Source of the DNA: SAR86 cluster bacterium AG-313-N18
Lineage (GTDB): Bacteria; Pseudomonadota; Gammaproteobacteria; Magnimaribacterales; D2472
Length of the DNA: 64,000 bases
Direction: 5' to 3'
Assembly: GCA_003283765.1 (NCBI GenBank)
Contig: QBVY01000003.1
Coordinates: 12,183 to 76,182 of the forward strand
A program made the position numbers and the translations under genes. The notes under the pieces were generated by a model. That model saw only the letters and a program-made list of their open reading frames with translations. It did no database searches and had not been told where the DNA came from. Positions 1 through 42,404 of the stretch are shown here, piece after piece; the stretch's first letter is position 1; each line of letters opens with the position of its first letter.

Positions 1-231
1 TTGGAAGTTGCTGTAACTGGCTATGATGATGAGATTTTAGGAGAAAAAGTTGGAGTTGTAGCTGTGGTTGCAGAAGGTGAGACTATATCTTTAGACGAAA
101 TAATAGAGTTTCTAAGAGACCAACAGATTGCAAAGTATAAAATGCCAGAGGATTTAAGACTGATCGATGCTTTACCAAAAAACCCTGTTGGTAAAGTTTT
201 AAGACGAGAGTTAAAAGATTTATTTAACTAG
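1..231 (+). CDS. Acyl-CoA synthetase / AMP-dependent ligase, C-terminal fragment (5' end outside window)
   Basis: Only the last 76 aa are in the window. The tail ...KMPEDLRLIDALPKNPVGKVLRRELK matches the conserved C-terminal Lys region of adenylate-forming ligases. Confidence 0.65.
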   Translation: MEVAVTGYDDEILGEKVGVVAVVAEGETISLDEIIEFLRDQQIAKYKMPEDLRLIDALPKNPVGKVLRRELKDLFN

Positions 232-3935: not shown

Positions 3936-5135
3936 ATGAATCCTGTTTATATTGTTGATTCAATAAGAACGCCCAGAGCTCGAGCAAATCAAAAAGGCGG
4001 ACTCAATAAGCTCAATCCATATGAATTATTAGATTTTTTGTATAAGGATATTGAGTCTAAAAATTTCTTCAATTTAAAATCTATCGATGAAGTGATATTG
4101 GGTTGTGTCACTCAATTTGGGGAGCAAGCTGGCAATATTGCAAAAGCTTCTTCTTTATTTTCTGGCTATCCAGATTCAATTTCTGGCCTAACTATAAATA
4201 GGTTTTGTTCCTCAAGCTTGGATGCAATAAATTTCGCTTGTTTGAAAGTTCAATCTCAGCAAGCAAATAATGTGATTGCTGGTGGAGTGGAAATGATGTC
4301 CAGGGTACCAATGCTTTCTGATGAAGCGGCAATTTGGAATGACTTAGAGATCGCCGGAAGAGCAAAAATTTTTTTAATGGGCAGTGGAGCGGATCTGATT
4401 GCCAGTCTTTTTGATATTTCTAGAGAAGATGTAGATAAACAAGCTCTAAAATCTCAGCAAAAGGCATTAAATGCTCTAAAAAATAATTATTTTAAGTCAA
4501 TAATTCCAGTTACGAGTAAGAATAAATTAATTCACTGTGTTGAGGATGAATGCATTAGGCCCGATACAACCCTAGAAAGCTTGGCTTCATTAGAGCCTAG
4601 TTTTAAGAAGCTAGGAGAGCAGGGAGCAGACCAAGCTCAATTAAATCTTTTTCGTAACCTAAAAGAGATCTCTCATGTGCATACAGCAGGTAACTCTCCA
4701 GCAATGGCAGATGCTGCATCTATGACTCTTCTTTCAAATAAAAAAATCCAGGAAAATGGACATAGAGCTAGAGCAAAAATTATTTCTGTTGCCACTGTAA
4801 ATGATGACCCTTTATTAGTTTTATCAGGCTGCATCTTAGCTACGCAAAAAATACTTTCACAAAATAATTTAAAAGTATCTGATGTAGATTTATTTGAAAT
4901 ACATGAAGCTTTTGCCTCGACCATGATTCATTGTCAGAAAGAGTTAAAAATAGATGATGCAAAGCTAAACGTTAATGGTGGCTGTATAGCTCTCGGTCAT
5001 CCCATGGGAGCTACTGGCTCAATTATGATGTCAACACTAGTTGATGAGCTCGAAAGACGAGATCTTGCAACTGGAATTGTTGCAACCAGCGGTGCGGCTG
5101 GAGCTGGAACAGCTATTTTAATTGAGAGGATATAA
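3936..5135 (+). CDS. Thiolase-family acetyl-CoA acyltransferase paralog, atypical (C-terminal catalytic Cys replaced)
   Basis: 399 aa. NRFCSSSLDA nucleophile Cys, HEAFAS and GCIALGHPMGATG motifs present. The usual C-terminal C-x-G-G-G motif reads ATSGAAGAG (Ser instead of Cys). Confidence 0.8.
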   Translation: MNPVYIVDSIRTPRARANQKGGLNKLNPYELLDFLYKDIESKNFFNLKSIDEVILGCVTQFGEQAGNIAKASSLFSGYPDSISGLTINRFCSSSLDAINFACLKVQSQQANNVIAGGVEMMSRVPMLSDEAAIWNDLEIAGRAKIFLMGSGADLIASLFDISREDVDKQALKSQQKALNALKNNYFKSIIPVTSKNKLIHCVEDECIRPDTTLESLASLEPSFKKLGEQGADQAQLNLFRNLKEISHVHTAGNSPAMADAASMTLLSNKKIQENGHRARAKIISVATVNDDPLLVLSGCILATQKILSQNNLKVSDVDLFEIHEAFASTMIHCQKELKIDDAKLNVNGGCIALGHPMGATGSIMMSTLVDELERRDLATGIVATSGAAGAGTAILIERI

Positions 5136-5184: not shown

Positions 5185-7473
5185 TTAAAAATTATAATCT
5201 AACTTAATGGCTATATTTTTTGGTCTAGCATAAATGGCATCATAGGCTATTCCATCTAGCGCTCCACCTGACGCAAGTCTGACAAATGTTCTTGCGAGTG
5301 GAATAGTTCCACCAACAACTTTAATTCGTTCGTCAGTTAAGTTGTCACCAATCAACGACACTCTCCATTTACCATCTGAGCTAGTTAATCCAAGAACTAA
5401 TCCAACTTTTGAATAGCCGCCTTCTTTGATGTTCTTATCAAGGTTGGTCGTAATGAAGTACTCTGAAGAATAATCAACATTTAAGTTAGCATCAAAAACC
5501 CAGTTATTTGATAAAGTAGTATCATACGCAAAGCCAGCATTTGCTGTATCTTCAGGAGCAAGAATGACACTAGCACCAGATCTATCACAGTAAATACCAT
5601 TTGTTGGAGCCTCACCATATGCACACTGACTATTTTTCCAATCAGTAAATTCGTATGTCAAACTAGCCATTGATGCATAAAACTCTAAGTCATCTGTAAT
5701 AAGATACCTACCTTGCATTTCAAAACCATCCAACTCTGCTGCTGAAGCATTTCCCACTTTAAAGCCTAACACACCATCAAAAACACTGGTTTGCAGGTCT
5801 TCATACTCAGTTGTGAAATAGGTGAAATCAAATGAAGCTCTGTCTGATTTCATTTTATAACCCCATTCAATATTTGTAGCATTTTCTTCTTCAAACTCGA
5901 ACCCACCTTCACTTGAAACTAATGGTGTGCCTGGTATGGAATTACCTCGAATATCAAAACCACCGGCTTTAGATCCTTGTGTGTATGAAACATACATTTG
6001 GGAGTTATCAGATAGGTCATAGCTTAGTCGAACCATTGGATCAAATGAGTTTTCGCTTCTGCTGGCAGCAATGCTGTGAGGACCAACATTCAAAACTCCA
6101 GCCCATAAAGCAGGAAGTAGAGGAGAGCCATCAAGAGCTGTCCCTTTTCCATTTAAGGTTAAAGATCGACTTCCGTCTTTGTCTTCACTAGAGTATCTTG
6201 CTCCAAGCGTTAAGCTCCAATTACCCTCTAAATTAATATCGGCTTGACCAAAAACAGAATACATATCTGAAGATTGTGCATACAGCCTATCCCAATTTGT
6301 TCCTACTAATAAGGATACCGGAGGTCCTGCAAGCGCAAGGAATGATCCCAATGGAACATAATCAGTGACATCAACATCAGCTGTTTGGAAGTAAGCTCCA
6401 ATAATGTAGTCAACATCTTCTCCACCAGGAGAGGTATACCTAATTTCTTGTGACCATTGATCATACTTTTCTGTTTGGTTTGTACCATCTAGGATTTCTA
6501 AACCAACATAGTCAACATCTAACACTTCATATGAATCATATTCAACATGACCGGTAATTGAGGTTAGGGTTCCGCCACCGTCCATTGGATAGTTGGCAGT
6601 CAGCACAAAGTTATCCATTGTATTTTGGCTAAAAGTTTCCCCACTTGATCTAACCCAGTTTTCGGTTGTTTCAACTGCAATAGGTCCACGAAAAACAAGA
6701 CCATAGCCATCTTGTGGCGCTAGAGCTTCCATGGCGTAACCCACAGAATCAAAATCTGCTGTTTCAACTTTAAGATTGTAGTCAACATCTCCAGATGACC
6801 ATGCAAGTTGTCCCCTGATGTATGTCTCATCTCTTTGTGGCTCAAGTCTTTTCATGTTTGTGTTTGTAATCCAACCATCCATTTCTCTTGTAGAAACAGT
6901 TAATCTTCCAAGAACACTCTCTGATAGAGCACCAGATAACACTAAAAGTGATTGATCTTCACCATGTTCAGATTCATGAGATGTAGAAAACTTACCTTCA
7001 AATTCTTCAGTTGGTTTCGCTGAAGTAACACTTACAGCTCCACCAATTGCATTCTTGCCAAATAGGGTAGGCTGAGGACCTCGTAAAACTTCTACACGCT
7101 CCAAATCAACAAGCGGAGTTCTTGCTAATTGACTACGAGGGTAAACAATTCCATCAAAATTTATTGGAACAGATTGCTCAAAGCCTTTGTTAGCACCTGA
7201 TCTAACTCCACGAATAGAAATTGAAGTATCAATTTGCGTTTCAACCACCATAAAGTTCGGTACAGAAGCTGAAAGCGTTTGAAGGCTATCAATACTTCTT
7301 TCATCAATATCTTCCCCAGCAATGGCTGAGACTGAAATTGGAACATCTTGAAGGCTCTGCTCTCTAATTTGAGCTGTAACTACAACCTCTTCAAGAACTT
7401 GTGTAAAGGCCAAAGGCGCCCAAGTGAATAAAATGGCTGCAAAGACCACATTAAAAAAACGTTTACTAAACAT
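5185..7473 (-). CDS. TonB-dependent outer-membrane receptor
   Basis: 762 aa. Signal peptide, then a plug region (LEEVVVTAQIREQSLQDVPISVSAI, RVEVLRGPQPTLFGKNAIGG). Beta-barrel-like repeats follow and the C-terminus ends in aromatic ...KLDYNF. SD AAGGGG lies 5 nt upstream of the ATG. Confidence 0.85.
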   Translation of the reverse strand: MFSKRFFNVVFAAILFTWAPLAFTQVLEEVVVTAQIREQSLQDVPISVSAIAGEDIDERSIDSLQTLSASVPNFMVVETQIDTSISIRGVRSGANKGFEQSVPINFDGIVYPRSQLARTPLVDLERVEVLRGPQPTLFGKNAIGGAVSVTSAKPTEEFEGKFSTSHESEHGEDQSLLVLSGALSESVLGRLTVSTREMDGWITNTNMKRLEPQRDETYIRGQLAWSSGDVDYNLKVETADFDSVGYAMEALAPQDGYGLVFRGPIAVETTENWVRSSGETFSQNTMDNFVLTANYPMDGGGTLTSITGHVEYDSYEVLDVDYVGLEILDGTNQTEKYDQWSQEIRYTSPGGEDVDYIIGAYFQTADVDVTDYVPLGSFLALAGPPVSLLVGTNWDRLYAQSSDMYSVFGQADINLEGNWSLTLGARYSSEDKDGSRSLTLNGKGTALDGSPLLPALWAGVLNVGPHSIAASRSENSFDPMVRLSYDLSDNSQMYVSYTQGSKAGGFDIRGNSIPGTPLVSSEGGFEFEEENATNIEWGYKMKSDRASFDFTYFTTEYEDLQTSVFDGVLGFKVGNASAAELDGFEMQGRYLITDDLEFYASMASLTYEFTDWKNSQCAYGEAPTNGIYCDRSGASVILAPEDTANAGFAYDTTLSNNWVFDANLNVDYSSEYFITTNLDKNIKEGGYSKVGLVLGLTSSDGKWRVSLIGDNLTDERIKVVGGTIPLARTFVRLASGGALDGIAYDAIYARPKNIAIKLDYNF

Positions 7474-8622: not shown

Positions 8623-14808
<6,186 letters not shown>

Positions 14809-19502: not shown

Positions 19503-20876
19503 TTAGCTTATATCAATCTGAATTGTTTCATCAATTAATTTTAATTGATTAAGAAACATATTTTTTATTTCCTCCAATTTAGAAGGTGTTTTAGCTTCAA
19601 ACCTTAGGACAAGTTTTGGGGTGGTATTTGATGCCCGTATTAAGCCCCAGCCATCATCAAAATCTACTCTCAACCCATCAATAGTAACTTTAGAGCCCCC
19701 TTTAAATTTAGCTTTATTTACAAAATCCTTCACTATTTTAAATTTCTTTTCTTCCAGAACATTAATATTTAATTCAGGAGTAGAGAAGGCTTTGGGAAGT
19801 TCATTCAGCATATAAGATAGAGGTACGTCTAAACCTTCCATAATTTCTAATAACCTAAAAGCAGAATAATGACCATCATCAAAACCATGCCACTTATCAT
19901 TAAAAAAAATATGACCACTCATTTCACCTGCAAGCGGAGCATTAGTTTTTTTTAGACTATTTTTTATATGAAAATGACCCGTTGGAGACATTAATGGGAT
20001 ACCCCCAGCCTCATTAATTATATTGCCAAGTAAATTTGTACACTTCACATCAAAAATTATTTCTTTGCCAGGATGATTTTTTAAAATATCTTTAGAAAAG
20101 ATCATCATAAGTTGATCTGGAAAAATAATATCTCCTTCTTCAGTCACAACTCCTAACCTATCCCCATCTCCATCAAAGGCTATTCCCAAATCAGCTGAAT
20201 TTTCTTTTACCGCCCCAATTAAATCTTGTAGGTTCTCTATTTTTCCAGGATCAGGGTGATGATTGGGGAAGTGTCCATCAATCTCACAATAAAGTTCAAT
20301 TACTTCATAACCTAACGAGCGCATTAGTTTGGGAGCAATTTCGCCTGCTGAACCATTACCACAATCAAGAACAACCTTAATTTTTTTCGGCCCCTTCGAA
20401 CTTTGTGATAGCACTTCTTGGATGTATTCATCCATCAGATTTTTCTTATAGATCTCCTTGCCAACATTTCTTTTAGCGATTGGTTCATCAGATACCAAAC
20501 TCAAGATCTCAAGACCTGATACAGGAGAATCGTTAATTACTATTTTCAACCCATTATAGTTTTTTGGATTATGGCTTCCAGTAATCATGATTCCAGATTT
20601 CGAAGACAGCTTTTTAGCCGCATAATATAAAAGGGGGCTGGTAACTATCCCAATATTCACAATATTGATTCCAAGAGATTGGAGCTCTTGAGAGAGGAGA
20701 TTTAATATTTGTTCTCCAGATATTCTTCCGTCTCTTCCAAGTGCCAGCTCATCAATATTTTCATCATTGCATTTTTTAGCAATTGCATGAGAGATAATTT
20801 TTATAGAGGCTTCATTTATTTCAGAGGGCACAATTCCCCTAATGTCATATTCTCTAAAAATGGATTCATCAATCAT
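19503..20876 (-). CDS. algC: Phosphomannomutase/phosphoglucomutase
   Basis: 457 aa. Active-site loop TGSHNP, metal site FDGDGDR and GEMSGH sugar-binding loop are present. Confidence 0.85.
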   Translation of the reverse strand: MIDESIFREYDIRGIVPSEINEASIKIISHAIAKKCNDENIDELALGRDGRISGEQILNLLSQELQSLGINIVNIGIVTSPLLYYAAKKLSSKSGIMITGSHNPKNYNGLKIVINDSPVSGLEILSLVSDEPIAKRNVGKEIYKKNLMDEYIQEVLSQSSKGPKKIKVVLDCGNGSAGEIAPKLMRSLGYEVIELYCEIDGHFPNHHPDPGKIENLQDLIGAVKENSADLGIAFDGDGDRLGVVTEEGDIIFPDQLMMIFSKDILKNHPGKEIIFDVKCTNLLGNIINEAGGIPLMSPTGHFHIKNSLKKTNAPLAGEMSGHIFFNDKWHGFDDGHYSAFRLLEIMEGLDVPLSYMLNELPKAFSTPELNINVLEEKKFKIVKDFVNKAKFKGGSKVTIDGLRVDFDDGWGLIRASNTTPKLVLRFEAKTPSKLEEIKNMFLNQLKLIDETIQIDIS

Positions 20877-20917
20877 AGGAATTTTAATTTCATTATCGAG
20901 GTTGTTTTGTCATAATA

Positions 20918-21862
20918 ATGAGACTTAAAACCATACACAACATGTTTCTTAACACCGACTCAAAATTTATCTGGCTTAATGGAAGTTTTCAGCCATTTAA
21001 TGAAACAAATATTCATCTTTTGTCTAACACGCTACATTATGGAATGGGTGTTTTTGAAGGAGTGCGAGCCTATGAAACAGCAGATGGCGGTGCAATCTTT
21101 AGGCTAGATGATCATACCAAAAGATTATTTGATGCTGCATCCAAAATTAATATTTCCATTCCATTTTCAATCGATGATTTATGTCAAGCGCAGAAAGCAG
21201 CAATGATTAAAAATAATCTTCTCGAGGGCTATATACGACCAATCGTTTTTTTAGGCAGTGAATCAATGGGCTTGAGATCTCAAGATTCACTTTCAGTCAA
21301 TGTTGCAATCGCATGTTGGGAATGGCCATCATATATGGATCCAGGCGCCAAGAGGAATGGCATTTCCGTGGTTAAATCCCCATTTCAACAATATGACAAT
21401 CCTCTATATTCCAATAACAAAATTATTGGAACATATGTTAATTCGATTATGGCAGTCAATGATGCAATCTCTAAGGGAGCTGAAGAAGCAATATTGCTAG
21501 ATAAAAACGGTTTTATTTCAGAGGGAAGTGGTGAAAACCTGTTTATAGTTAAGAACTCTAAGCTTATGACGCCAACAACAGATTATTGTTTAAATGGAAT
21601 TACTAGACAAAGTGTTATCACTATTGCCCAAAATCTTCGATTCATTGTTGAAGAGAAGAATTTAACTTTTGATGATTTGTTATCGGCAGACGAGGCTTTC
21701 TATTCAGGCACAGCAGTTGAAATTACTCCAATAACCAGTGTTGATGGGACTAAAATAGGCAGTGGCTCAATTGGGCCAATCACCGATCAACTTCAGAGCA
21801 ATTATTCTGACATAGTTTATGGGCGCGATGAAAACTACTCCAACTGGCTAACTTCAATTTAG
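20918..21862 (+). CDS. ilvE: Branched-chain amino acid aminotransferase
   Basis: 314 aa, co-linear with E. coli IlvE (FIWLNGSF..., LHYGMGVFEGVRAY, GYIRPIVFLG). The start could instead be Met9 at 20942. Confidence 0.9.
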   Translation: MRLKTIHNMFLNTDSKFIWLNGSFQPFNETNIHLLSNTLHYGMGVFEGVRAYETADGGAIFRLDDHTKRLFDAASKINISIPFSIDDLCQAQKAAMIKNNLLEGYIRPIVFLGSESMGLRSQDSLSVNVAIACWEWPSYMDPGAKRNGISVVKSPFQQYDNPLYSNNKIIGTYVNSIMAVNDAISKGAEEAILLDKNGFISEGSGENLFIVKNSKLMTPTTDYCLNGITRQSVITIAQNLRFIVEEKNLTFDDLLSADEAFYSGTAVEITPITSVDGTKIGSGSIGPITDQLQSNYSDIVYGRDENYSNWLTSI

Positions 21863-21874
21863 TCTAAATTTAAA

Positions 21875-23119
21875 TTGAGTCAAAAATTAAACATTGCTAT
21901 TTGTAGTTACCGAAGCGCACCCTTTGGAGGCGGTCAAGGTATATTTGTATTTGAGTTATCCAGAGCTTTGAATGATTTAGGTCATCAAGTGGATGTTATT
22001 TCAGGACCACCATATCCCAACCTTGCAAATAATGTAAAGCTAATTCAGTCTCCAGGCTTAGATTTGTTTAGAACTTTTAACTTTAGAGAAAGGCTAAAAA
22101 TTTTTTTTAAAAAAAAAAATAAGACTTCAGACGATTGGTATGAATTTATTTCAGCCCTATTTGGAGGGTTTCCAGAATTGAAGACTTTTGGTAACAGGGC
22201 GCAAACTCTTCTCAATAAATCTTCATATGATGTTGTCGTTGACAATCAATCTCTTAGTTACGGGATGATCGAAGTTCAAAAAAATCTACCCTTAATTGAA
22301 ATTATCCATCATCCTATTACAAAAGATTATCAATATGATATTCAATTCTCAAAAGGAATTATCCAAAAATTATCTAAATGGAGATGGTTTTCCTTCTTAA
22401 AAATGCAAAAAAGGGTATCTCTGGAATTAAAGGTTATTTCTACGCCATCACATAATTCAAAAAAAGATATCGTAAGGGATTTCGGTGTGCTTGAAAAAAA
22501 TATTTCAGTAATACCTAATGGCATCGATCATTTAAGTTTCACACCTTTGCAAGATATTAACAGAGTTCCATCACAAATTATTACAACCGCCAGTGCAGAT
22601 GTTCCTCTTAAAGGACTAGATTTTACATTGCATGCCGTTGCTAGATTAAAAGAAGATTATCCACAATTAAAATTAGTGATTATTGGTTCACCAAAACCTG
22701 GTGGACATACGGAGAGATTAATTAAAAAATTGCAAATCGATCAATATATATTATACAGATCTAACCTTAGCAGATACGAGATTGCTGTTGAATATGCTAA
22801 AAGTAATGTTGCTATTGTGAGTTCTCTGTATGAGGGTTTTGGATTTCCTGTAGGGGAGGCTATGTCTTGTGCAATACCTCTTATTGCAACAAATGTCGCA
22901 TCTATTCCAGAAATAACGCAATCTTTTGCGGAACTTATCCCAGCTGAAAGCACAGATGCAATAGAATCAGCTATCAGAAAAATTTTTGCCAACCCTGAAA
23001 CGAGTCAATTAAGAGCAGATGCTGGAAGAATGCATATAAAAGAGAACTTTGATTGGCAAAAAATTGCAAAGTTATATGAAGATTTAATATACAAAACGAT
23101 AGATGAGTTCCAGTGTTAA
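21875..23119 (+). CDS. Glycosyltransferase family 4 (GT-B fold)
   Basis: 414 aa with a TTG start. N-terminal GGGQGIFVFELSRAL. C-terminal EGFGFPVGEAMSCAIPLIATN (E-x7-E type GT4 motif). Confidence 0.8.
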   Translation: MSQKLNIAICSYRSAPFGGGQGIFVFELSRALNDLGHQVDVISGPPYPNLANNVKLIQSPGLDLFRTFNFRERLKIFFKKKNKTSDDWYEFISALFGGFPELKTFGNRAQTLLNKSSYDVVVDNQSLSYGMIEVQKNLPLIEIIHHPITKDYQYDIQFSKGIIQKLSKWRWFSFLKMQKRVSLELKVISTPSHNSKKDIVRDFGVLEKNISVIPNGIDHLSFTPLQDINRVPSQIITTASADVPLKGLDFTLHAVARLKEDYPQLKLVIIGSPKPGGHTERLIKKLQIDQYILYRSNLSRYEIAVEYAKSNVAIVSSLYEGFGFPVGEAMSCAIPLIATNVASIPEITQSFAELIPAESTDAIESAIRKIFANPETSQLRADAGRMHIKENFDWQKIAKLYEDLIYKTIDEFQC

Positions 23120-23817
23120 CTTTTAGTCTAAATAAGATTGCTCTTAAGCCGCACTCAAAAGTTTTAGATGTGGGTTGTGGAGAGGGACGTCATATATTTG
23201 GATCTTTGCATGAGTATACTAATGTCCATTGTGTTGGACTGGACCAGGATATTCCTTCATTAAATAAATGTATGGAAGGCTTGGAGTTTTTTAAAGAGCT
23301 CAATTCTGGCTCTACTATTTTTATGCAAGGTTCTGTATACAGATTACCATTTGACGATAATAGTTTTGATCTTGTTATTTGTTCAGAAGTGCTAGAGCAT
23401 CTTGATGATTACCATGCAGCATTAGATGAAATTTATAGAGTTTTAAAACCTAAAGGCAAATTTTTACCTAGTGTTCCATCGTATTGGCCTGAAAAAATTT
23501 GCTGGTCTCTTTCATCCAGTTATCAAAATATGCCAGGTGGTCACGTAAGAATTTTTAAAAAACGTCAAGTGATTAATGAGATTATGGATCATGGGTTCAC
23601 GTATGATTATGCTGAAAGGTTTCATGGTCTGCATAGCGCATATTGGTGGCTTCGATGTCTTTTTTGGAACACTCAAGATTCAAACTATTTTATAAAGATT
23701 TATAAAAAATTTCTTGAATATCAAATTCTTCACAGCCCAGCATGGTTGAACAATTTTGAAAAAATTCTAAATCCCATTTTTGGAAAAAGCATTGCATTTT
23801 ATTTCGAAAAAAAATGA
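23113..23817 (+). CDS. Class I SAM-dependent methyltransferase
   Basis: 234 aa with a GTG start that overlaps the GT4 stop (GTGTTAA). Motif I VLDVGCGEGRH. Motif post-II/III reads DLVICSEVLEHLDD...LKPKG. Confidence 0.8.
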   Translation: MLTFSLNKIALKPHSKVLDVGCGEGRHIFGSLHEYTNVHCVGLDQDIPSLNKCMEGLEFFKELNSGSTIFMQGSVYRLPFDDNSFDLVICSEVLEHLDDYHAALDEIYRVLKPKGKFLPSVPSYWPEKICWSLSSSYQNMPGGHVRIFKKRQVINEIMDHGFTYDYAERFHGLHSAYWWLRCLFWNTQDSNYFIKIYKKFLEYQILHSPAWLNNFEKILNPIFGKSIAFYFEKK

Positions 23818-24857
23818 AAAGGTTTCCAAATACATCTCAAATTGATCCCAGTTCTCTAGATGGGTTAAACCATTTAGGTGAGTTTTTAGATCACGTTCAG
23901 TTTCATTCCGGTGCTATTCCATCCAATCAAGATGGCTCACATGATCCGTGGGATCATCTTGAAGCTGTTATGGGTTTAACAACTTTAGGTTACAAGGATC
24001 AAGCGCTTAATGGTCTTAATTGGATGGCCGCTAATCAAAATGAAGATGGCAGTTGGTATGACCTATATCAAGATAACAAGCCATTAGAGCTCAACAAACA
24101 GACTAATTATTCTTCCTATATTGCAGTTGCTGTATGGCACTTTTATTTGCTTAATGATGATATTCATTTTCTCAAAAATTTTTGGGAGCCAGTTAAAAAA
24201 GGTGTTTTATTCTCTCTTTCTCTTCAGCATAGCAATGGAGCAATTGCATGGAATATAGATAAGTCTAAAAAAATAGATGAAGACTATCTTTTGACTGGGT
24301 GTAGCTCTATTGCAAAAAGTCTCGAGTGCGCGATAGCAATTTGCCAAGTTTTGGAACACAAGATCTTTGAATTAGAATGGAGAGATTCACATTCAAAATT
24401 ACTAGTTGCACTTGAAAATCCAGCAGAAATTTTTGATCTAAAGAAAGATCGCAGCAGGTTTTCAATGGACTGGTATTATCCTATTCTGGGTGGCATTAAT
24501 TCAAAACAAAGAATCGTCTCCCTAATAGAGATGATCAAAAATTCCTTTTGGATCAAAGACCTTGGAATTAAATGTGTTGCAGATGAGCCATGGGTAACTG
24601 TTGCAGAAACAAGTGAATGTTCTATTGCATTTAAAAAAATTGGAGAAGATAAGATTGCATCAGAACTCCTTCAAAATGCCATTGCTATAGTTGATTCGCA
24701 GGACATTCCTTATATGGGCTGGCAATTTCATGAAAATATTTATTGGCCTGAAGAAAACCCTTCATGGACTGCCGCAGCATGCATCCTCGCTGCTGATGCA
24801 AATAATAAACTCACCCCCGGTGCTGATTTATTTACCAAGCTTCAATTTAAGTCTTAG
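23814..24857 (+). CDS. Alpha/alpha-toroid protein resembling prenyltransferase / squalene-cyclase repeat proteins (function unknown)
   Basis: 347 aa. ATGA start/stop overlap with the methyltransferase. QW-like repeats: SNQDGSHDPWDHLEA, ANQNEDGSWYDLY, LQHSNGAIAW. Assignment is by motif pattern only. Confidence 0.45.
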   Translation: MKRFPNTSQIDPSSLDGLNHLGEFLDHVQFHSGAIPSNQDGSHDPWDHLEAVMGLTTLGYKDQALNGLNWMAANQNEDGSWYDLYQDNKPLELNKQTNYSSYIAVAVWHFYLLNDDIHFLKNFWEPVKKGVLFSLSLQHSNGAIAWNIDKSKKIDEDYLLTGCSSIAKSLECAIAICQVLEHKIFELEWRDSHSKLLVALENPAEIFDLKKDRSRFSMDWYYPILGGINSKQRIVSLIEMIKNSFWIKDLGIKCVADEPWVTVAETSECSIAFKKIGEDKIASELLQNAIAIVDSQDIPYMGWQFHENIYWPEENPSWTAAACILAADANNKLTPGADLFTKLQFKS

Positions 24858-25452
24858 TTAGGCAAACAATCGTATCAACTCTTTCATGAAGCTGAAAACC
24901 TTCTGTCAAAGCTTTTTGATATATTAAATAAGGTGCTTGCCCGCCATCCTCTGGTTTTTCATAAATATCATGAATTACCATTGCTCCATGAGAATGGAGC
25001 TTGGAGTTCCAATTGTCATAATCATTCATTGCAGATGTTTCAGTGTGACTGCCATCAATAAATAAAAGTCCCAATTCTGTTTTCCATGAAGGCGCAATAG
25101 AATTTGCATTTGCAAGAATTGGCACTACCCATTTGCTTTCTTCAAATTGTTGAAGGTTTGCTTGCATTAAAGGTACCGTATTCACTCGACCTAATTTTCT
25201 GTCATAAATTTCTGGATCAAAATAATCTTCACCGAGCTGGTGTTCCTCTGATCCAGAATGATGGTCTATAGTATAAACAAGCTGATTATGAATTGAACTT
25301 CCAGCTGCAATGTATAAAGAAGACTTGGCACCAAAGGTACCAATTTCTAGTGCAGGCCCATGAAGAGAAAACTCTTCGGCCCATTTTGTTAATGCTAAGC
25401 CCTCATGACTTGGCATAAATCCTTTAAGATTATCTAATTGTTCAAAATCCAT
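24847..25452 (-). CDS. Class I SAM-dependent methyltransferase (Methyltransf_24-like)
   Basis: 201 aa. ALEIGTFGAKSSLYIA and LLFIDGSHTETSAMNDYDNW motifs present. It sits 1 nt downstream of lpxL. Its 3' end overlaps the convergent ORF by 11 nt. Confidence 0.7.
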   Translation of the reverse strand: MDFEQLDNLKGFMPSHEGLALTKWAEEFSLHGPALEIGTFGAKSSLYIAAGSSIHNQLVYTIDHHSGSEEHQLGEDYFDPEIYDRKLGRVNTVPLMQANLQQFEESKWVVPILANANSIAPSWKTELGLLFIDGSHTETSAMNDYDNWNSKLHSHGAMVIHDIYEKPEDGGQAPYLIYQKALTEGFQLHERVDTIVCLTKT

Positions 25453-25453
25453 A

Positions 25454-26308
25454 TTACTTATAAAAGTTTTTTCCTAATGTTGATTTAAATCTTCTATGGC
25501 TCCAAAGATACTCAGCAGGATGCTGAAGAATCTTATGTTCCATCAAGTCATTAATTTTCTGGGCTAACTCCATCGAATTGAGTTCCGCATGATCAATTAA
25601 TTCTATCTCAAGAACTAATTTATTATTTTTATAATATGAATTTAAAAATAATAAATTTGAATTTGTAGCATCAATAATTTTTTTTGTTGATGTGATCGTA
25701 GCAGCTTCTTGATTAAAAAATTCTAATTTAACAGAATGATCCCAGCCATAATCTTGATCTATAGCATACATGACGTTTTTTCCGCCTTTAAGCCATCTCA
25801 TAAATTTACGTGGATTATTCTTATCTGCGGTATCTTTAATGCTAGAAAGTCGGCCTTTATCTTGTATTTTATTCATTGAAGCTGAATTATGTGTTCTGCT
25901 GACACCATATACCTCAGCATTCATAGCAAAAATACGAGCATCTAATTCTAAGTGTTGAGAGTGTTTAAAAATGATTAAATTTCCATTCTCAGAGTCACTG
26001 TTAGACAAAAGATCTATTCCACTGAGCTCATAATCAACTTTATTTTGTATTTTTTTGTCTGACCAAAACCAAGCTATACCTGTTTCAACGAATGATCTTC
26101 CCAAGTACAAGAAATTATCTTGCAAGAGTTGTTGTTGCTCAGTTTTTGAAAAATCCGGAAAGCATACCTCAATATTTACTTGAGCAATTTTTTTTCTACT
26201 CTTAGCTAAAATAAACAGGAGCTTGCCACAAGATTTTCCTATTGCCGGATGCCATGAAGTTGGTAGATGGCAAAGACATTGCCATAATGTCATCATTAAC
26301 CTAATCAA
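25454..26308 (-). CDS. lpxL: Lipid A biosynthesis late (lauroyl/myristoyl) acyltransferase
   Basis: 284 aa with LpxL/HtrB-like architecture. H-x4-E catalytic motif (HSQHLE) present. Divergent from waaA. Confidence 0.7.
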   Translation of the reverse strand: MIRLMMTLWQCLCHLPTSWHPAIGKSCGKLLFILAKSRKKIAQVNIEVCFPDFSKTEQQQLLQDNFLYLGRSFVETGIAWFWSDKKIQNKVDYELSGIDLLSNSDSENGNLIIFKHSQHLELDARIFAMNAEVYGVSRTHNSASMNKIQDKGRLSSIKDTADKNNPRKFMRWLKGGKNVMYAIDQDYGWDHSVKLEFFNQEAATITSTKKIIDATNSNLLFLNSYYKNNKLVLEIELIDHAELNSMELAQKINDLMEHKILQHPAEYLWSHRRFKSTLGKNFYK

Positions 26309-26369
26309 TATTATGAGTATATAAAAATTAAAGAATGTATTATTACATTAATTTAAATATACCTTTTAT

Positions 26370-27943
<1,574 letters not shown>

Positions 27944-32121: not shown

Positions 32122-34353
32122 ATGAAAAACCTTCTAATTTCAATCGTTCTGCTTTGTATTTTTACTGTAGCTATTTTTTTTGGAGGCGCTTTTTTCAAAG
32201 TCTTTGGAACATTGGATGGACCCGGAGTTATAGAAGGAAGAGTTCTTCCAGAACAAGCAATTCAAGATAGAGCCACTCGGATCAATGTGGTGAAATCAGA
32301 TTTAGAGGTTTTGGGTGACAAACAAATTCTCTTTGGCGATCTTCATGTTCATACAACCTATTCAACAGATGCATTCATGTGGTCTTTACCCTTTATGAAC
32401 GGTAAAGGGGCTTCGCCATTAGCTGATGCATGTGATTACGCCAGATTTTGTTCAGCTTTAGATTTTTGGTCCATTAATGATCATGCTGAAGCAAGCACCC
32501 CAAGAAAATGGTTGGATACCAAACAAAGTATTCAACAATGTAATAATTTATCAGAAGGAACAGATGATTTGGTTAGCTTCTTAGGATGGGAATGGACTCA
32601 AGTTGATCCGAATCCAGAAAATCATTACGGGCACAAAAACGTTATTTTTTTAGAAACCGATGATGCTGTGGTGCCACCAAGAGCAATTGGCTCAGGAGGA
32701 GTCGCACCATTAGTTATGAGACTAGGTTTGCCTTGGACCATGTCAGCCTTGCCTGCAACTTTAGATTTCAAAAATAGAGACAGATTCTTTGCATTTGATA
32801 AATTCTTTGACGAAATCCAAGCAACACCTATATGCCCTGAAGGAGTAAATACCAGAGATCTCCCTGTAAATTGTTATGAGGAGGCAACCAATCCAAATAT
32901 TTTGTTCCAGAAATTGAAAGATTGGGATACACCCTACATGGTCATTCCACATGGTACTACTTGGGGGTTTTATACTCCACCAACATCTGATTGGAAAAAA
33001 CAATTAACAGATTTTAAGGACGATGAATCTCAATTTTTGTTTGAGATATATTCTGGTCATGGTAACTCAGAAGAATACAGAACTTGGAATGATTCAGACA
33101 TTGATCTAAACGTTGAGCTTTTTTGTCCCAATGAAACTAAAGATTTCTTACCAACCTGCCAGCAAGCAGGCAATATTATGGCTGAAAGATGTGAAACCTC
33201 TGGGATGGATGATCAAACTTGTAAGTATTTAGTAGATCAAACAAAATTATTTGCGGCTCAAATGGGCTCAACAGGATATGCTGCAGTGAATGAAACAAAT
33301 CCAGATGATTACTTAAATGCTGGACAATGCAATGATTGTTTTTTGCCGTCATTTAACTACAGGCCTCTAGGCTCTGCTCAGTATGTTTTAGCATTAAGTG
33401 ACTTTACCGATAAAGAGAATCCACAACGTTTTAAGTTTGGGTTTATTGGCTCAAGCGATAATCATGGCGCTCGGCCTGGTACCGGATACAAGGAAATTGA
33501 TCGACTTTTTAATACTGAGGCTAATGGCTTCAATGATCCATTTTATGAAAAAATGAGTGATTTAAGGCGCCCCAAAGGTGAATTAGAACCATCTTATGTT
33601 GATTTAGGTAATACTAACTTGACCAGCATTATGGATTTGAATATTGCCACGGATGCTGAAAGGCAAAGTGCATATTTTATGTCAGGAGGACTGGTTGCTG
33701 CCCACTCAACATCTCGAAAAAGAGAATCAATTTGGGATGCTCTAGAAAGAAAAGAAGTTTATGCAACCTCGGGACCAAGAATTCTTTTATGGTTTGATGC
33801 AGAAACTCAATCTGAATCTTTATCAATGGGCTCAGAAGTTGAGAGTAATCAATCACCGGTATTTACTGTAAAAGCAGCAGGCTCTCTTAAACAAAAACCT
33901 GGCTGCCCTGACTACAGCAACAATGGATTAACAAAAGAGCGTTTAGAGAAGATCTGTAATTCAGAATGTTACAACCCTAGCAATGAAAGAAGAGTGATTA
34001 CCCGAATTGAGGTTATAAAAATTTTGCCACAACAATATGAAAATGAACCAGTTGAAGGACTTGTAGAAGATGTGTGGAAAACCATCCCCTGCAATAGTAC
34101 GAGTTGCAAGGTGTCATTTGAAGATGAGCAATTCTCAATTGGTCGAAGAGATGCTGTTTATTATGTCAGGGCTATTGAAGAGCCCTCGCTAAAGCTTTCT
34201 GCTGATCCGCTGGGATGTGAATTTGATGAAAATGGTAAATGCATTAAAACTGAAATATGTAGAGTGGGAGTTCATGAGAATAGGGGAGACTGTCTTGCAC
34301 CAGCAGAAAATAGAGCTTGGTCTAGCCCAATTTATGTTAACTACCCTTCCTAA
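32122..34353 (+). CDS. DUF3604-like membrane-anchored putative metal-dependent (PHP-like) protein, function unknown
   Basis: 743 aa with an N-terminal TM helix. His-rich motifs: FGDLHVHTTYSTDAF, WSINDHAE, IPHGTTWG, EIYSGHGNSE, GSSDNHGARPG. Many Cys residues. Confidence 0.55.
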   Translation: MKNLLISIVLLCIFTVAIFFGGAFFKVFGTLDGPGVIEGRVLPEQAIQDRATRINVVKSDLEVLGDKQILFGDLHVHTTYSTDAFMWSLPFMNGKGASPLADACDYARFCSALDFWSINDHAEASTPRKWLDTKQSIQQCNNLSEGTDDLVSFLGWEWTQVDPNPENHYGHKNVIFLETDDAVVPPRAIGSGGVAPLVMRLGLPWTMSALPATLDFKNRDRFFAFDKFFDEIQATPICPEGVNTRDLPVNCYEEATNPNILFQKLKDWDTPYMVIPHGTTWGFYTPPTSDWKKQLTDFKDDESQFLFEIYSGHGNSEEYRTWNDSDIDLNVELFCPNETKDFLPTCQQAGNIMAERCETSGMDDQTCKYLVDQTKLFAAQMGSTGYAAVNETNPDDYLNAGQCNDCFLPSFNYRPLGSAQYVLALSDFTDKENPQRFKFGFIGSSDNHGARPGTGYKEIDRLFNTEANGFNDPFYEKMSDLRRPKGELEPSYVDLGNTNLTSIMDLNIATDAERQSAYFMSGGLVAAHSTSRKRESIWDALERKEVYATSGPRILLWFDAETQSESLSMGSEVESNQSPVFTVKAAGSLKQKPGCPDYSNNGLTKERLEKICNSECYNPSNERRVITRIEVIKILPQQYENEPVEGLVEDVWKTIPCNSTSCKVSFEDEQFSIGRRDAVYYVRAIEEPSLKLSADPLGCEFDENGKCIKTEICRVGVHENRGDCLAPAENRAWSSPIYVNYPS

Positions 34354-40081: not shown

Positions 40082-41203
40082 ATGCAAGACTACAACACAG
40101 AACATCCTTTCGATCTCACTTTATCTGAAGAGCAGCAAATGACCTGGGACATGCTCAGAAAATTTGCTGAAACTGAGCTTCGCCCTCATGCAAGGCAAGC
40201 CGAGAGTGATGGCAGGCCTAGCGATGAATTGCTTGAGAAAATTAAATCTTTGGATCTTATTTCTCTTATTATCCCTGAAGCATATGGTGGCATGGGATTA
40301 GAACAAGATTCTGTTTCAAATGCTTTGGCACTTGAGGCACTCGCCTATGGAGATCTATCACTAGCTATGTCTGTTTCTGTTCCTTTGTTGGCTGCACAAA
40401 TTATTTCAGAGCATGGTAGTGAAGAACAGAAAGCAGAACTTTTACCAAATCTTGTTAATGGTTCAATCTTTCATGTCGGTCTCGGGATTAACAATGCATT
40501 GCTGGCGACTGATCCATATCAATCAAGTGTTATTGCAGATGAGAGTGGTGAAGAGATTATTCTTAATGGATCGAAAACAGGTGTTGCTTTTGCGGATGAA
40601 GCTAAAACTTTTTTAATTTCCGCATCCAATGAATCTGGCGAATGTAATCTATATTTCGTGAATAAAGATCAAGAGGGAGTCGAGCTTGAGCAAAAAGAAT
40701 TTATGGGCTTAAAGGGCGCGCCTTTATCACAGATTAATTTTTCTAATTGCAAAATTAATGCTTCACAAAAACTCGGTGGACACAATTACTCTATTAATTA
40801 TGAAGCGCTTGTAGACTCTTCTCGAATCGGCATGTCCGCTCTAGCGCTAGGAGTTTGCCAAGCAGTTCTAGATTATGTTGTTCCATATACCAATGAACGA
40901 GTCGCTTTTGATGAGCCTATTTCAAACCGACAGTCGGTAGCTTTTATGGTTGCTGATATGGCAATTGAAACTGAGGCCTTGAGATTGATGGTATATAAAT
41001 CCTCTGCCTTAAAGGATCTTGGCGAAGACTTTCATAAACAGGCATCACTTACATATCGGTTTGCTGCCCATCATGGCATGAAAATAGGAACTGATGGAGT
41101 TCAATTGCTTGGAGGCCATGGTTTTACTCATGAGCATCCTGTTGAACTTTGGTACAGAAATTTAAGAGCCATTGGCATATTTGAAGGGGGCGCAGGAGTC
41201 TAA
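40082..41203 (+). CDS. Acyl-CoA dehydrogenase family protein (short C-terminus)
   Basis: 373 aa with an ACAD fold pattern. It ends at ...YRNLRAIGIFEGGAGV, immediately after the position of the usual catalytic-Glu motif, so the last helix is missing. Confidence 0.8.
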   Translation: MQDYNTEHPFDLTLSEEQQMTWDMLRKFAETELRPHARQAESDGRPSDELLEKIKSLDLISLIIPEAYGGMGLEQDSVSNALALEALAYGDLSLAMSVSVPLLAAQIISEHGSEEQKAELLPNLVNGSIFHVGLGINNALLATDPYQSSVIADESGEEIILNGSKTGVAFADEAKTFLISASNESGECNLYFVNKDQEGVELEQKEFMGLKGAPLSQINFSNCKINASQKLGGHNYSINYEALVDSSRIGMSALALGVCQAVLDYVVPYTNERVAFDEPISNRQSVAFMVADMAIETEALRLMVYKSSALKDLGEDFHKQASLTYRFAAHHGMKIGTDGVQLLGGHGFTHEHPVELWYRNLRAIGIFEGGAGV

Positions 41204-41204
41204 A

Positions 41205-42404
41205 ATGATACATCCACTTTTACCAAATCAATTACAAAAAACTCAAGAGACCATGAGAATGGCCGCTGAGTTTATATTACGTCCTATTTCTAGAAAATAT
41301 GATAAAGCAGAGCATGAACCGCCTTTAGAAATGGAGCAGCTGAATCAAGCCGCTGCAGCGCAAAAAAAAGAAACTGGAATGGGTAATGATTCAGTTAAAT
41401 CAATGGATTTGGGCGGAAGAAATCTTTGGGCTGTCATTTCTTTAGAGCAAATGTGTTGGGGTGATGTCGGGCTATTTCTTGCGAGGCCAGGCACTGGATT
41501 AGGCAATGCTGCCATCATGGCGGTTGGCAACACAGACCAAAAGGCTTTATGGGGAAAAAGATGGGCCGCTATGGCAATAACAGAACCTGCAGCTGGTTCA
41601 GATTCAAAAAATATCTCAACAACCGCAGTCTTGGAAGGGGATGAATGGGTTTTAAATGGTGAAAAGATTTATGTCACTGATGGAGATCGATGTGATTGTG
41701 TTGTTGTCTGGGCAACCTTAAACAAAGATATGGGAAAAACAGCAATCAGATCCTTTATTGTAGAGAAAGGCACGCCAGGATTTACCGTTGCAAGGCTTGA
41801 AAAAAAATTAGGCATCAGAGCCTCTGATACTGCCACTTTAATTTTTGATAATTGCAGGATCCCTCGTGAAAATTTGCTTGGTGGCAAGGAAGAGATTGAG
41901 ACGGATATCAATGCAGCTAAAAAATCATTTGGTGGAGCCATGCAGACTTTTGATAATACTCGACCAATGGTTGCTGGAATGGCAATCGGTCTTGGCCAAG
42001 CTGCATTAGATATGACAAGAGCGTTATTGGCTGAAGAGGGTTATGAAGATAATTTTGGTGGATCTATGCACCAACAAACAGCCATTCAAAATGAATTAGA
42101 GATGCTTGAAGCTGAGCTAGAGGCTGCAAGATTGCTTGTTTATAAGTCGGCTTGGATGATGGATAACAAAATGCCAAATTCGAAGGAAGCATCCATGGGC
42201 AAGGCAAAAGCCGGCAGAATTGGGAATAGAATTTCTTTAAAATGTGTTGAAATATGTTCTATGCAGGGCTTTTCAGAGGATCATTTACTCGAAAAGTTCT
42301 CTCGCGATTCCAAAATTCTTGATATTTTCGAGGGTACTCAACAGATCCAGCAACTGATTGTTGCAAGGCAAGTTTTAGGCAAAAGCTCGTCACAGCTAAA
42401 ATAA
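41205..42404 (+). CDS. Acyl-CoA dehydrogenase family protein
   Basis: The ATG at 41205 lies 1 nt after the upstream stop, with AGGAG 7 nt upstream. The TTG at 41172 in the ORF track is less likely. AITEPAAGSD and LDIFEGTQQIQQLIVAR motifs present. Confidence 0.8.
   Translation: MIHPLLPNQLQKTQETMRMAAEFILRPISRKYDKAEHEPPLEMEQLNQAAAAQKKETGMGNDSVKSMDLGGRNLWAVISLEQMCWGDVGLFLARPGTGLGNAAIMAVGNTDQKALWGKRWAAMAITEPAAGSDSKNISTTAVLEGDEWVLNGEKIYVTDGDRCDCVVVWATLNKDMGKTAIRSFIVEKGTPGFTVARLEKKLGIRASDTATLIFDNCRIPRENLLGGKEEIETDINAAKKSFGGAMQTFDNTRPMVAGMAIGLGQAALDMTRALLAEEGYEDNFGGSMHQQTAIQNELEMLEAELEAARLLVYKSAWMMDNKMPNSKEASMGKAKAGRIGNRISLKCVEICSMQGFSEDHLLEKFSRDSKILDIFEGTQQIQQLIVARQVLGKSSSQLK

Follow-up and report, generated by a model that had tools for sequence, protein, structure and literature searches.

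A source for the gene cluster for 3-O-methylmannose polysaccharide (MMP) in mycobacteria is reportedly a study by Ripoll-Rozada et al. (2019, PNAS). The cluster comprises manT, pmeT3, mmpH, and meT1, present in M. hassiacum as MHAS_04402 (ManT), MHAS_04403 (pMeT3), MHAS_04404 (MmpH), and MHAS_04405 (MeT1) and in M. smegmatis as MSMEG_6481-6484 (Maranha et al. 2023 Commun Biol, PMC9883506). The same paper confirms the PDB entries of ManT, MmpH, and MeT1 as M. hassiacum MMP enzymes, whereas pMeT3 is a putative enzyme in mycobacteria too. Mycobacterial ManT uses GDP-mannose as its donor, the recycling of primers by MmpH has been named “partially conservative replication,” and the polymer, which helps the cells grow in the cold, has a proposed role in sequestering fatty acids and long-chain acyl-CoA (PMC9883506). 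MMP, like its alpha-(1->4)-mannosyl linkage, has been described as a rarity found essentially in mycobacteria; the published survey of genomes for the cluster was restricted to actinobacteria (PMC9883506), and the function proposed for MMP is bound up with the fatty-acid and envelope biology of mycobacteria. Outside mycobacteria, Streptomyces griseus is the sole organism in which a polymer of this type has been demonstrated chemically; its MMP is acetylated, and its ManT shares 53% identity with the M. hassiacum enzyme (PMC9883506). Our literature search found no report of chemically evidenced MMP outside Actinomycetota. A second mycobacterial polymer, the 6-O-methylglucose lipopolysaccharide (MGLP), is likewise a polymethylated alpha-1,4-hexose polymer of the cytoplasm; it binds acyl chains and is built by a GT4-type glycosyltransferase and SAM methyltransferases, but it differs in its enzymes, its glucosylglycerate primer, and its acylated chain.

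How does the SAR86 locus compare with these systems? We analyzed a 64,000-nucleotide stretch (the window) of a contig from SAR86 cluster bacterium AG-313-N18, in which positions 21875-25452 hold four adjacent genes with no other gene between them. We consider this segment probably to be a complete four-gene orthologue of the actinobacterial cluster for MMP biosynthesis and recycling. The gene for a ManT-like GT4 protein (21875-23119, plus strand, TTG start, 414 amino acids) overlaps that for the pMeT3-like methyltransferase A (23113-23817, plus strand, GTG start, 234 amino acids; Pfam Methyltransf_11/25) by 7 nt (GTGTTAA, 23113-23119), and the latter overlaps the gene for an MmpH-like protein of 347 amino acids (23814-24857, plus strand) by 4 nt (ATGA, 23814-23817). 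The gene for the MeT1-like methyltransferase B (24847-25452, minus strand, 201 amino acids; Pfam Methyltransf_24) converges on the MmpH-like gene with an 11-nt overlap and lies 1 nt from lpxL (25454-26308, minus strand; Pfam Lip_A_acyltrans and an NCBIfam match). A divergent spacer of 61 nt separates lpxL from waaA (26370-27608, plus strand; Pfam Kdo transferase and an NCBIfam match), and neither gene is part of the system. A preliminary description of this DNA had given the same coordinates, overlap signals, 1-nt gap, and divergent waaA, all of which we confirmed; it was also right about the broad classes of one GT4 and two SAM methyltransferases (Pfam GT4, Methyltransf_11, and Methyltransf_24). 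Independent gene calls on metagenomic relatives (95% identical) yielded the same gene boundaries. The overlaps are not due to chance: across the 80 related loci, the 4-nt overlap is the commonest junction between the methyltransferase A and MmpH-like genes and short overlaps between the ManT and methyltransferase A genes are usual. The translational coupling of the cassette is like that of many other family members.

The first gene encodes a predicted orthologue of ManT, expected from its sequence to act as a retaining alpha-(1->4)-mannosyltransferase that elongates a methylmannose chain. A phmmer search of the PDB placed M. hassiacum ManT (7QSG) first, with an E value of 6.8e-76 compared to 1e-15 for the next match, and the two proteins are 39% identical across 389 amino acids. 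The window protein and ManT of the actinobacterial clusters were reciprocal best hits. The catalytic signature of the GT-B fold (the Gly15 loop, His142, Lys240, Glu313, and Glu321) is present in full: ManT residues G15, H142, K240, E313, G314, F315, and E321 correspond to G19, H145, K246, E320, G321, F322, and E328 of the window protein. E320 and E328 are invariant among 62 ManT orthologues, and G19, H145, and K246 are found in 58 to 61 of them. K240, E313, and E321 have been validated by mutation in the mycobacterial enzyme (PMC9883506).

The middle gene would encode a class I SAM methyltransferase orthologous to pMeT3, a putative mannose 3-O-methyltransferase. Like MHAS_04403, it sits between ManT and MmpH (PMC9883506). 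In six actinobacterial MMP clusters, the middle gene and the window gene were each other's best hits, at 33 to 39% identity and 156 to 180 bits; these actinobacterial genes matched the other Methyltransf_11 open reading frame of the window with only 39 to 51 bits. The best PDB match of methyltransferase A reached 49 bits. Proteins in which methyltransferase A is fused to MmpH (pMeT3::MmpH) also exist (P0132 and P0212). Reciprocal best hits and the conserved position point to orthology with MHAS_04403 and MSMEG_6483, and the activity is putative.

For the 201-amino-acid methyltransferase B, the sequence predicts a MeT1 orthologue, a 1-O-methyltransferase of the Methyltransf_24 family that would cap the reducing end. 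Over residues 5 to 185 it matched the PDB entries of M. hassiacum MeT1 (6G7D, 6G80, and 6H40; E value of 2e-43), beyond which phmmer returned no other real match in the PDB, and blastp gave 41% identity to the M. hassiacum enzyme. All motifs that are invariant in the MeT1 family (DHHxGSEExQ, FIDGxH, HD, and GG..P) are present. This second methyltransferase had been linked earlier to lpxL. That link did not hold; the gene belongs to the cassette, since it follows MmpH convergently in Actinomycetota and Alphaproteobacteria with no lpxL beside it.

The third gene encodes a predicted orthologue of MmpH, the alpha-(1->4)-endomannosidase with an (alpha/alpha)6 barrel, and its residues suggest that it would cut the mature polymer into primers. 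MmpH (7QSJ) was the only significant sequence match in the PDB by phmmer (E value of 3.7e-57, 36.6% identity across 309 amino acids). Ten of the 11 active-site residues of MmpH are identical in the window protein (D47, W49, D50, N101, T163, M215, Y219, E262, E265, and W315), the exception being F102, which is Tyr99; for the subsite residues W49, N101, F102, T163, M215, Y219, E265, and W315, this means 7 of 8. These positions are near-invariant in 81 homologues. The catalytic base Glu262 and the candidate acids Asp47 and Asp50 of MmpH, all three validated by mutation (PMC9883506), correspond to E265, D44, and D47 of the window protein, of which D44 is invariant in the homologues, E265 is kept in 80, and D47 is kept in 73. 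The inverting (alpha/alpha)6 hydrolases of families GH15 and GH125 (clan GH-L) share the fold and the general-base glutamate with MmpH and the window protein (PMC9883506). However, their sequence identity to MmpH is 8 to 13% (figures for MmpH, PMC9883506), MmpH is endo-acting, and the -1 subsites differ in their residues.

Three of the four proteins therefore have the corresponding M. hassiacum MMP enzyme as their sole strong PDB match, and none of the window proteins points to the MGLP enzymes. The order and orientation of the genes are those of MHAS_04402 to MHAS_04405. The true unit is four genes that include the convergent methyltransferase, one-for-one with the mycobacterial cluster, and the locus, previously called uncharacterized, holds orthologues of the characterized ManT, MmpH, and MeT1 and of the putative pMeT3. 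As in mycobacteria, the same four protein families occur in the same order with a convergent meT1, ManT and MmpH keep their validated catalytic residues, and the proteins are all soluble, by prediction in our case. Unlike the mycobacterial cluster, that of the window lies between ilvE and lpxL/waaA in a low-GC, Gram-negative marine gammaproteobacterium with FAS-II, its proteins are 36 to 41% identical to the M. hassiacum enzymes, the equivalent of ManT D293 is Arg, and its product is predicted.

We then compared the 65 related loci that had enough flanking sequence. All four genes were present in 45 of these 65, from Gamma- and Alphaproteobacteria, Desulfobacterota, and Actinomycetota. The order ManT (+), methyltransferase A (+), MmpH (+), and methyltransferase B (-) was seen in all 45 complete cassettes, with MeT1 convergently after MmpH in 34. 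The actinobacterial loci L060, L075, L079, and L080 have the order of the window. The enzymes of the actinobacterial loci share 54 to 68% identity with those of M. hassiacum, so that these loci can be taken as genuine MMP clusters, and all four window genes are reciprocal best hits of actinobacterial MMP cluster genes. Within this set, the window proteins have diverged furthest, and S. griseus ManT is no closer to that of M. hassiacum than some proteobacterial orthologues (Microbulbifer, 50%; Haliea, 47%). A concatenated tree follows taxonomy, so that the cassette evolves as a unit. At least dozens of species of proteobacterial, desulfobacterotal, and chloroflexotal affiliation carry the complete cassette, with synteny and catalytic residues kept, and no fewer than 594 species genomes contain MmpH homologues. 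No other gene family co-occurred with the cassette across phyla in the related loci. A hexapeptide-repeat acyltransferase gene lies beside MmpH in 18 other loci; in contrast to the acetylated system of S. griseus, the window has no acyltransferase gene, and the hexapeptide-repeat type was absent from the two Streptomyces loci sampled.

What might the cassette make? None of its four proteins has a transmembrane or signal segment (the WaaA control was clearly positive), and all four are predicted to be soluble proteins of the cytoplasm; the expected product is accordingly a polymethylated oligo- or polysaccharide that is amphipathic and stays inside the cell. The product is likely a cytoplasmic MMP-like polymer rather than an envelope glycolipid or terpenoid. 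By the steps carried over from the mycobacterial system (PMC9883506), the ManT-like enzyme would add alpha-(1->4)-mannose from a nucleotide sugar to oligomannoside primers of at least three units, the pMeT3-like enzyme would methylate new residues at 3-O in a SAM-dependent manner, the MeT1-like enzyme would cap the chain by methylating the 1-OH of the reducing end, and the MmpH-like endomannosidase would cleave mature chains into defined oligomers that prime daughter chains. We show homology, retained catalytic residues, and synteny across phyla, and from this correspondence we infer which product is made, from which sugar donor, what the pMeT3-like enzyme does, and what physiological role the polymer has. 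MMP classically stimulates FAS-I, a role with no clear equivalent in a gammaproteobacterium that has FAS-II.

The same enzyme set may have acquired a different product in the diverged SAR86-like lineage, a methylated oligosaccharide that is made with a different hexose or nucleotide-sugar donor or whose chain is far shorter than that of MMP; we regard this as unlikely, though worth weighing. It would fit the modest identity to the characterized enzymes, the lack of a mannose-1-phosphate guanylyltransferase gene (manC) within the 64-kb window, and one substitution in ManT. Leu291 and Asp293 of ManT are proposed to contact the guanine N2 of GDP-mannose (PMC9883506), and the window protein keeps the former as L298 but has R300 in place of the latter. 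This column is variable (D in 12, T in 21, and R or K in 8 of the 62 orthologues): the window protein and its SAR86-like relatives have Arg or Lys, the majority of Cellvibrionales have Thr, and Asp is limited to Actinomycetota plus a few others. In view of this replacement and variability, GDP-mannose is a tentative sugar donor for the window GT4. However, the role of D293 was assigned by analogy with PimA, without mutation (PMC9883506), the mannosyl contacts E313, G314, and F315 are invariant in the family, the MmpH substrate pocket is essentially identical, and the MeT1 motifs are invariant, all of which favors an MMP-like product. A phosphomannomutase/phosphoglucomutase gene of the PgmG/AlgC type (19503-20876, minus strand; NCBIfam NF046027, E value of 2e-138) lies two genes upstream of the cassette, outside its core, a position kept in SAR86-type loci only; its enzyme is a possible supplier of mannose-1-phosphate.

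The preliminary description had proposed, among other possibilities, an envelope role, in which the cassette would act with lpxL and waaA to add a methylated sugar to LPS core, lipid A, or a different glycolipid of the envelope. The idea of a methylated glycan was sound; its placement on LPS core or lipid A was not supported, and we consider it very improbable. The proximity of methyltransferase B to lpxL and the divergent waaA favor such a role, as does the 3-O-methylmannose LPS O-chain of Oligotropha carboxidovorans (as cited in PMC9883506). SAR86-type loci and two loci of Cellvibrionaceae have lpxL close to the cassette, and SAR86 and some Cellvibrionales (L022, L044, and L048) have waaA close to it. 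In the related loci, however, this adjacency is confined to Gammaproteobacteria: cassettes of Alphaproteobacteria and Desulfobacterota have neither gene nearby, the identical four-gene architecture occurs in Gram-positive Actinomycetota, again without them, and in four SAR86 loci (L010, L042, L053, and L074) 2 to 4 kb of other genes separate the cassette from lpxL. The adjacency is a lineage-specific chromosomal position, and co-inheritance with lipid A and core genes was not borne out. No flippase, polymerase, ligase, or polyprenyl-phosphate glycosyltransferase co-occurred with the cassette in the related loci, its proteins carry no membrane anchor or signal peptide, and an endo-hydrolase that recycles its own product misfits O-antigen or core assembly.

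A glycosylated, methylated terpenoid made with a prenyltransferase- or terpene cyclase-like 347-amino-acid protein can be dismissed almost entirely: an alpha/alpha toroid with DGSW-like loops and the NCBI name “prenyltransferase” of a protein 84% identical to it (P0054) speak for it, but the MmpH catalytic acid and base and the sugar-binding Trp, Asn, and Tyr are all kept, MmpH is the sole PDB sequence match, Pfam gave no prenyltransferase or squalene-hopene cyclase (SQHop_cyclase) match, a weak NCBIfam match was to a GH15-type oligosaccharide amylase, and the Foldseek top 50 of a weak AF2 model began with 7QSJ, continued almost only with (alpha/alpha)6 glycoside hydrolases and phosphorylases, and held no cyclase, prenyltransferase, or LanC. 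The DGSW-like repeats noticed earlier, at residues 40 (DGSH), 78 (DGSW), and 141 (NGAI), are modest, and such loops are a general mark of (alpha/alpha)6 barrels that does not single out a prenyltransferase or cyclase fold. The fallback suggestion of a six-hairpin glycosidase-like enzyme was correct, and the protein maps confidently to a characterized family unrelated to envelope chemistry.

An MMP-type cassette in SAR86 is a known system in a host range that has apparently not been reported before. Its presence in one of the most abundant groups of marine heterotrophs and in many non-actinobacteria suggests that a “mycobacterial” polymer is widespread, and we predict that the polymer and its self-priming “replication” are far more common than thought and that its function is independent of FAS-I or mycolic acids. 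The MMP prediction is directly testable, because cultured carriers of the cassette exist (for example, Microbulbifer agarilyticus, Zhongshania aliphaticivorans, Pseudomaricurvus hydrocarbonicus, and Seongchinamella sediminis). Speculatively, and with considerable doubt, MMP-type polymers could, instead of being exclusive to actinobacteria, be ancient, widespread cytoplasmic acyl-chain carriers that buffer acyl-CoA and fatty acids while lipids are broken down or at low temperature in SAR86, OM60/NOR5-type heterotrophs, and many lipid- or hydrocarbon-degrading Proteobacteria and Desulfobacterota. Our assignments also correct public annotations, which now read “hypothetical protein” or “prenyltransferase.” Methyl sugars are reported to be a major component of marine HMW-DOM (Quan & Repeta 2007, as cited in PMC4817625), and the cassette is a candidate bacterial source of its O-methyl hexoses.

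Comparison of each cassette protein with the sequences of proteins of solved structure was decisive. The 347-aa protein (23814-24857, plus strand), which had no Pfam match and only a subthreshold GH15-like match in NCBIfam, matched a single structure, 7QSJ (E = 3.7e-57, 36.6% identity over 309 residues), the methylmannose polysaccharide hydrolase MmpH of Mycolicibacterium hassiacum (PMC9883506). The GT4 glycosyltransferase (21875-23119, plus strand) matched 7QSG with an E value of 6.8e-76, compared with only 1e-15 for the runner-up GT4 structure, and the 201-aa methyltransferase (24847-25452, minus strand) matched 6G7D/6G80/6H40 (E = 2e-43), with no other genuine matches. The M. hassiacum cluster consists of four genes encoding ManT (MHAS_04402), the putative 3-O-methyltransferase pMeT3 (MHAS_04403), MmpH (MHAS_04404), and the 1-O-methyltransferase MeT1 (MHAS_04405), and its product is the intracellular 3-O-methylmannose polysaccharide (MMP) (Maranha et al., PMC9883506). 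The order in the window (GT4, methyltransferase, hydrolase, methyltransferase) is that of the M. hassiacum cluster, and thus the 234-aa methyltransferase (23113-23817, plus strand) occupies the pMeT3 position. Each of the four window genes and its counterpart in the actinobacterial clusters were reciprocal best hits; scores for the pMeT3-like gene were 156 to 180 bits, whereas the other Methyltransf_11 ORF of the window reached 39 to 51 bits. The cassette is very probably an orthologue of the MMP cluster.

This identification replaces the envelope glycolipid or terpenoid locus proposed in the preliminary description, whose coordinates and junctions nevertheless stand: every structural claim was borne out by the list of ORFs and by the raw sequence. 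The GTG start of the 234-aa methyltransferase gene overlaps the GT4 stop (GTGTTAA, 23113-23119), and the ATG of the 347-aa gene overlaps the TGA of the 234-aa methyltransferase gene (ATGA, 23814-23817). The 3' end of the 201-aa methyltransferase gene extends 11 nt into the 347-aa gene, 1 nt separates the 201-aa methyltransferase gene from lpxL (25454-26308, minus strand), and lpxL and waaA (26370-27608, plus strand) are transcribed divergently. Pfam and NCBIfam upheld the GT4, Methyltransf_11, Methyltransf_24, LpxL, and WaaA assignments. Independent gene calls on 95%-identical metagenome contigs gave the same boundaries; the exact window protein had no record in the contig index. A promoter and terminator scan of 20800-26450 was uninformative, since promoter-like sites were rarer than in shuffled sequence and no convincing terminator was found between the convergent genes. 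A PF20706 "GT4-conflict" match on the GT4 protein was rejected as evidence of a defense system; it reflects generic GT4 similarity.

Does the 347-aa protein have the fold of a terpene cyclase, a prenyltransferase, or a LanC-like protein, the alternatives that the preliminary description raised? An AlphaFold2 model, for which the alignment was shallow and confined to sequences with at least 80% identity, was of poor quality (mean pLDDT of 57.5, with the C-terminal third below 50), and the fold search with it therefore provides only weak corroboration. Searched against the PDB with Foldseek, the model had 7QSJ as its top match (E = 3e-11), and nearly all of the lower matches were to (alpha/alpha)6 glycoside hydrolases or phosphorylases (GH78, GH116, GH94, GH76, GH63, and GH100). 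None of these three folds appeared in the top 50. Public names for the family are mostly "hypothetical protein," with one "prenyltransferase." The protein that NCBI so named (P0054) is 84% identical to the 23814-24857 product and is probably a misannotated MmpH-family glycoside hydrolase.

We then mapped the residues named by Maranha et al. through the printed alignments. The MmpH catalytic base Glu262 and candidate acids Asp47/Asp50, which were validated by mutation (PMC9883506), correspond to Glu265 and Asp44/Asp47 of the window protein. MmpH residues Trp49, Asn101, Thr163, Met215, Tyr219, Glu265, and Trp315 are identical in the window protein, and Phe102 is replaced by Tyr. The window GT4 keeps ManT residues Gly15, His142, Lys240, Glu313, Gly314, Phe315, and Glu321; the sole exception among the mapped residues is Asp293, which is Arg300 in the window (codon 22772-22774). 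The catalytic positions were invariant or nearly so among the 81 MmpH and 62 ManT homologues. The proposal that Asp293 contacts guanine N2 was made by analogy with PimA (PMC9883506). In the alignment of the 62 ManT orthologues, Actinomycetota have Asp in this column, most Cellvibrionales have Thr, and the window's clade and SAR86-like loci have Arg or Lys. This variation in sequence suggests either that donor specificity is not set by this residue or that the donors differ. The MeT1-like protein carries the family-invariant motifs DHHxGSEExQ, FIDGxH, and HD.

Is the cassette kept as a unit in other genomes? When GTDB species, each represented by one genome, were scanned with a pattern, at least 594 genomes were found to encode an MmpH relative, and the best 80 of these loci were retrieved and searched with the window proteins by tblastn and ORF-level blastp. 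All four genes were present in 45 of the 65 loci having enough flanking sequence, and all 45 complete cassettes had the same order and orientation, with ManT, the 234-aa-type methyltransferase, and MmpH on one strand and the 201-aa-type methyltransferase on the other. Thirty-two of the 45 were from Gammaproteobacteria or unclassified Pseudomonadota (SAR86, Halieaceae, Luminiphilus, Microbulbifer, Pseudomaricurvus, Seongchinamella, and others), six were from Alphaproteobacteria (Phenylobacterium, Parvibaculum, and OCS116), three were from Desulfobacterota/Syntrophia, and four were from Actinomycetota; one Dehalococcoidales locus carried three of the four genes. With 54 to 68% identity to the M. 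hassiacum enzymes, the actinobacterial loci are genuine MMP clusters. Several proteobacterial orthologues are ∼50% identical to the M. hassiacum enzymes, and those of Streptomyces, from which acetylated MMP has been isolated (PMC9883506), are no closer. A neighbor-joining tree of the four concatenated proteins tracked taxonomy, with the window grouping with SAR86-type loci (L002 to L005). All-against-all clustering of neighboring ORFs revealed no other family that co-occurred across phyla and no universally associated fifth gene.

The adjacency to lpxL and waaA is real. The wider synteny (PBP1A, SlmA, PMM, ilvE, cassette, lpxL, waaA) is common to SAR86 single-cell genomes, and waaA lies close to the cassette in some Cellvibrionales. 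The association with lpxL/waaA was not found at related loci outside Gammaproteobacteria, Gram-positive hosts included. In a SAR86 subgroup (L010, L042, L053, and L074), 2 to 4 kb of extra genes separate the MeT1-like gene from lpxL, so that the 1-nt spacing is not fixed even within SAR86. The four cassette proteins also lack hydrophobic segments: their highest 19-residue Kyte-Doolittle mean was 1.42, whereas the WaaA anchor reached 2.55. The adjacency is best explained by a conserved position on the chromosome and not by a functional link.

By analogy with the mycobacterial system, the ManT-like GT4 would lengthen alpha-1,4-oligomannoside primers, the putative pMeT3-like enzyme would 3-O-methylate newly added residues, and the MeT1-like enzyme would cap the reducing end. 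The MmpH-like enzyme would cut mature chains asymmetrically, releasing oligomers that prime daughter chains. It is likely that the cassette makes a cytoplasmic alpha-1,4 3-O-methylmannose polymer by such a self-recycling mechanism. In M. smegmatis, loss of MmpH abolished MMP and slowed growth at 15°C, and the role proposed for MMP is cytoplasmic sequestration of acyl-CoA and fatty acids (PMC9883506). Least certain in this reading are the sugar donor, the exact product, the putative pMeT3 activity, and the role in a Gram-negative FAS-II host. Among the scanned window ORFs of at least 130 aa, a set that excluded the 1,486-aa ORF at 10348-14808, there was no manC (GDP-mannose pyrophosphorylase) gene.

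The window is rich in genes for lipid catabolism and uptake (three thiolases, two tandem acyl-CoA dehydrogenases, and two TonB-dependent receptors) and also encodes an RPE65-family carotenoid oxygenase; together these genes lie at 228-1463(-), 3936-5135(+), 45808-47001(+), 40082-42404(+), 5185-7473(-), 42533-45412(+), and 2474-3931(+). Circumstantially, the catabolism and uptake genes fit a lipid-catabolizing lifestyle in which an MMP-like carrier could help.

The MMP system itself is already known, and the published cluster survey covered only actinobacterial genomes (PMC9883506). In the literature searched, the 2019 PNAS MeT1 paper excepted, no report linked the methylmannose polysaccharide pathway to Proteobacteria; papers on methylmannose or polymethylated polysaccharides dealt either with mycobacteria and related organisms or with fungal and invertebrate glycans of an unrelated kind. 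A complete, conserved cassette in SAR86 and many non-actinobacterial lineages thus appears to be unreported.

Other arrangements of MmpH relatives were also observed. A hexapeptide-repeat (LbH) acyltransferase follows MmpH on the plus strand, about 0.9 to 2 kb downstream of the MmpH start, in 18 of the 80 loci, with or without a full cassette (L008, L009, L011, L012, L020, L021, L027, L030, L032 to L035, L043, L047, L049, L061, L063, and L070). It is limited to certain lineages and absent from the window; by analogy with Streptomyces griseus, whose MMP is acetylated, its role could be acylation of the polymer. In Desulfobacterota, 11 well-flanked loci carry MmpH with no ManT, pMeT3, or MeT1 within 8 kb (L011, L013, L021, L027, L029, L030, L035, L047, L049, L056, and L062), often together with the acyltransferase. 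In L021, a FadB-like gene and a thiolase gene lie divergently to the MmpH-acyltransferase pair, and thiolase or acyl-CoA dehydrogenase genes lie near MmpH in L020 and L035 too; a recurrent link to beta-oxidation was rejected as general evidence because only these three loci display it. Two homologues representing independent 50%-identity clusters are full-length pMeT3-like::MmpH fusions (P0132, 590 aa; P0212, 606 aa), and two others have N-terminal extensions of ∼410 residues (P0150, 740 aa) and ∼185 residues (P0158, 519 aa).

Elsewhere in the window, two minus-strand ORFs overlapping by ∼110 nt (56059-56718 and 56606-57424) match the phage lambda replication protein P domain and the DnaT DNA-binding domain, respectively; the two could form a primosome/helicase-loader pair or represent a frameshifted or mis-started gene. 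Directly downstream of purA, a 743-aa protein (32122-34353, plus strand) has as its sole Pfam match a partial DUF3604 domain at residues 433 to 560.
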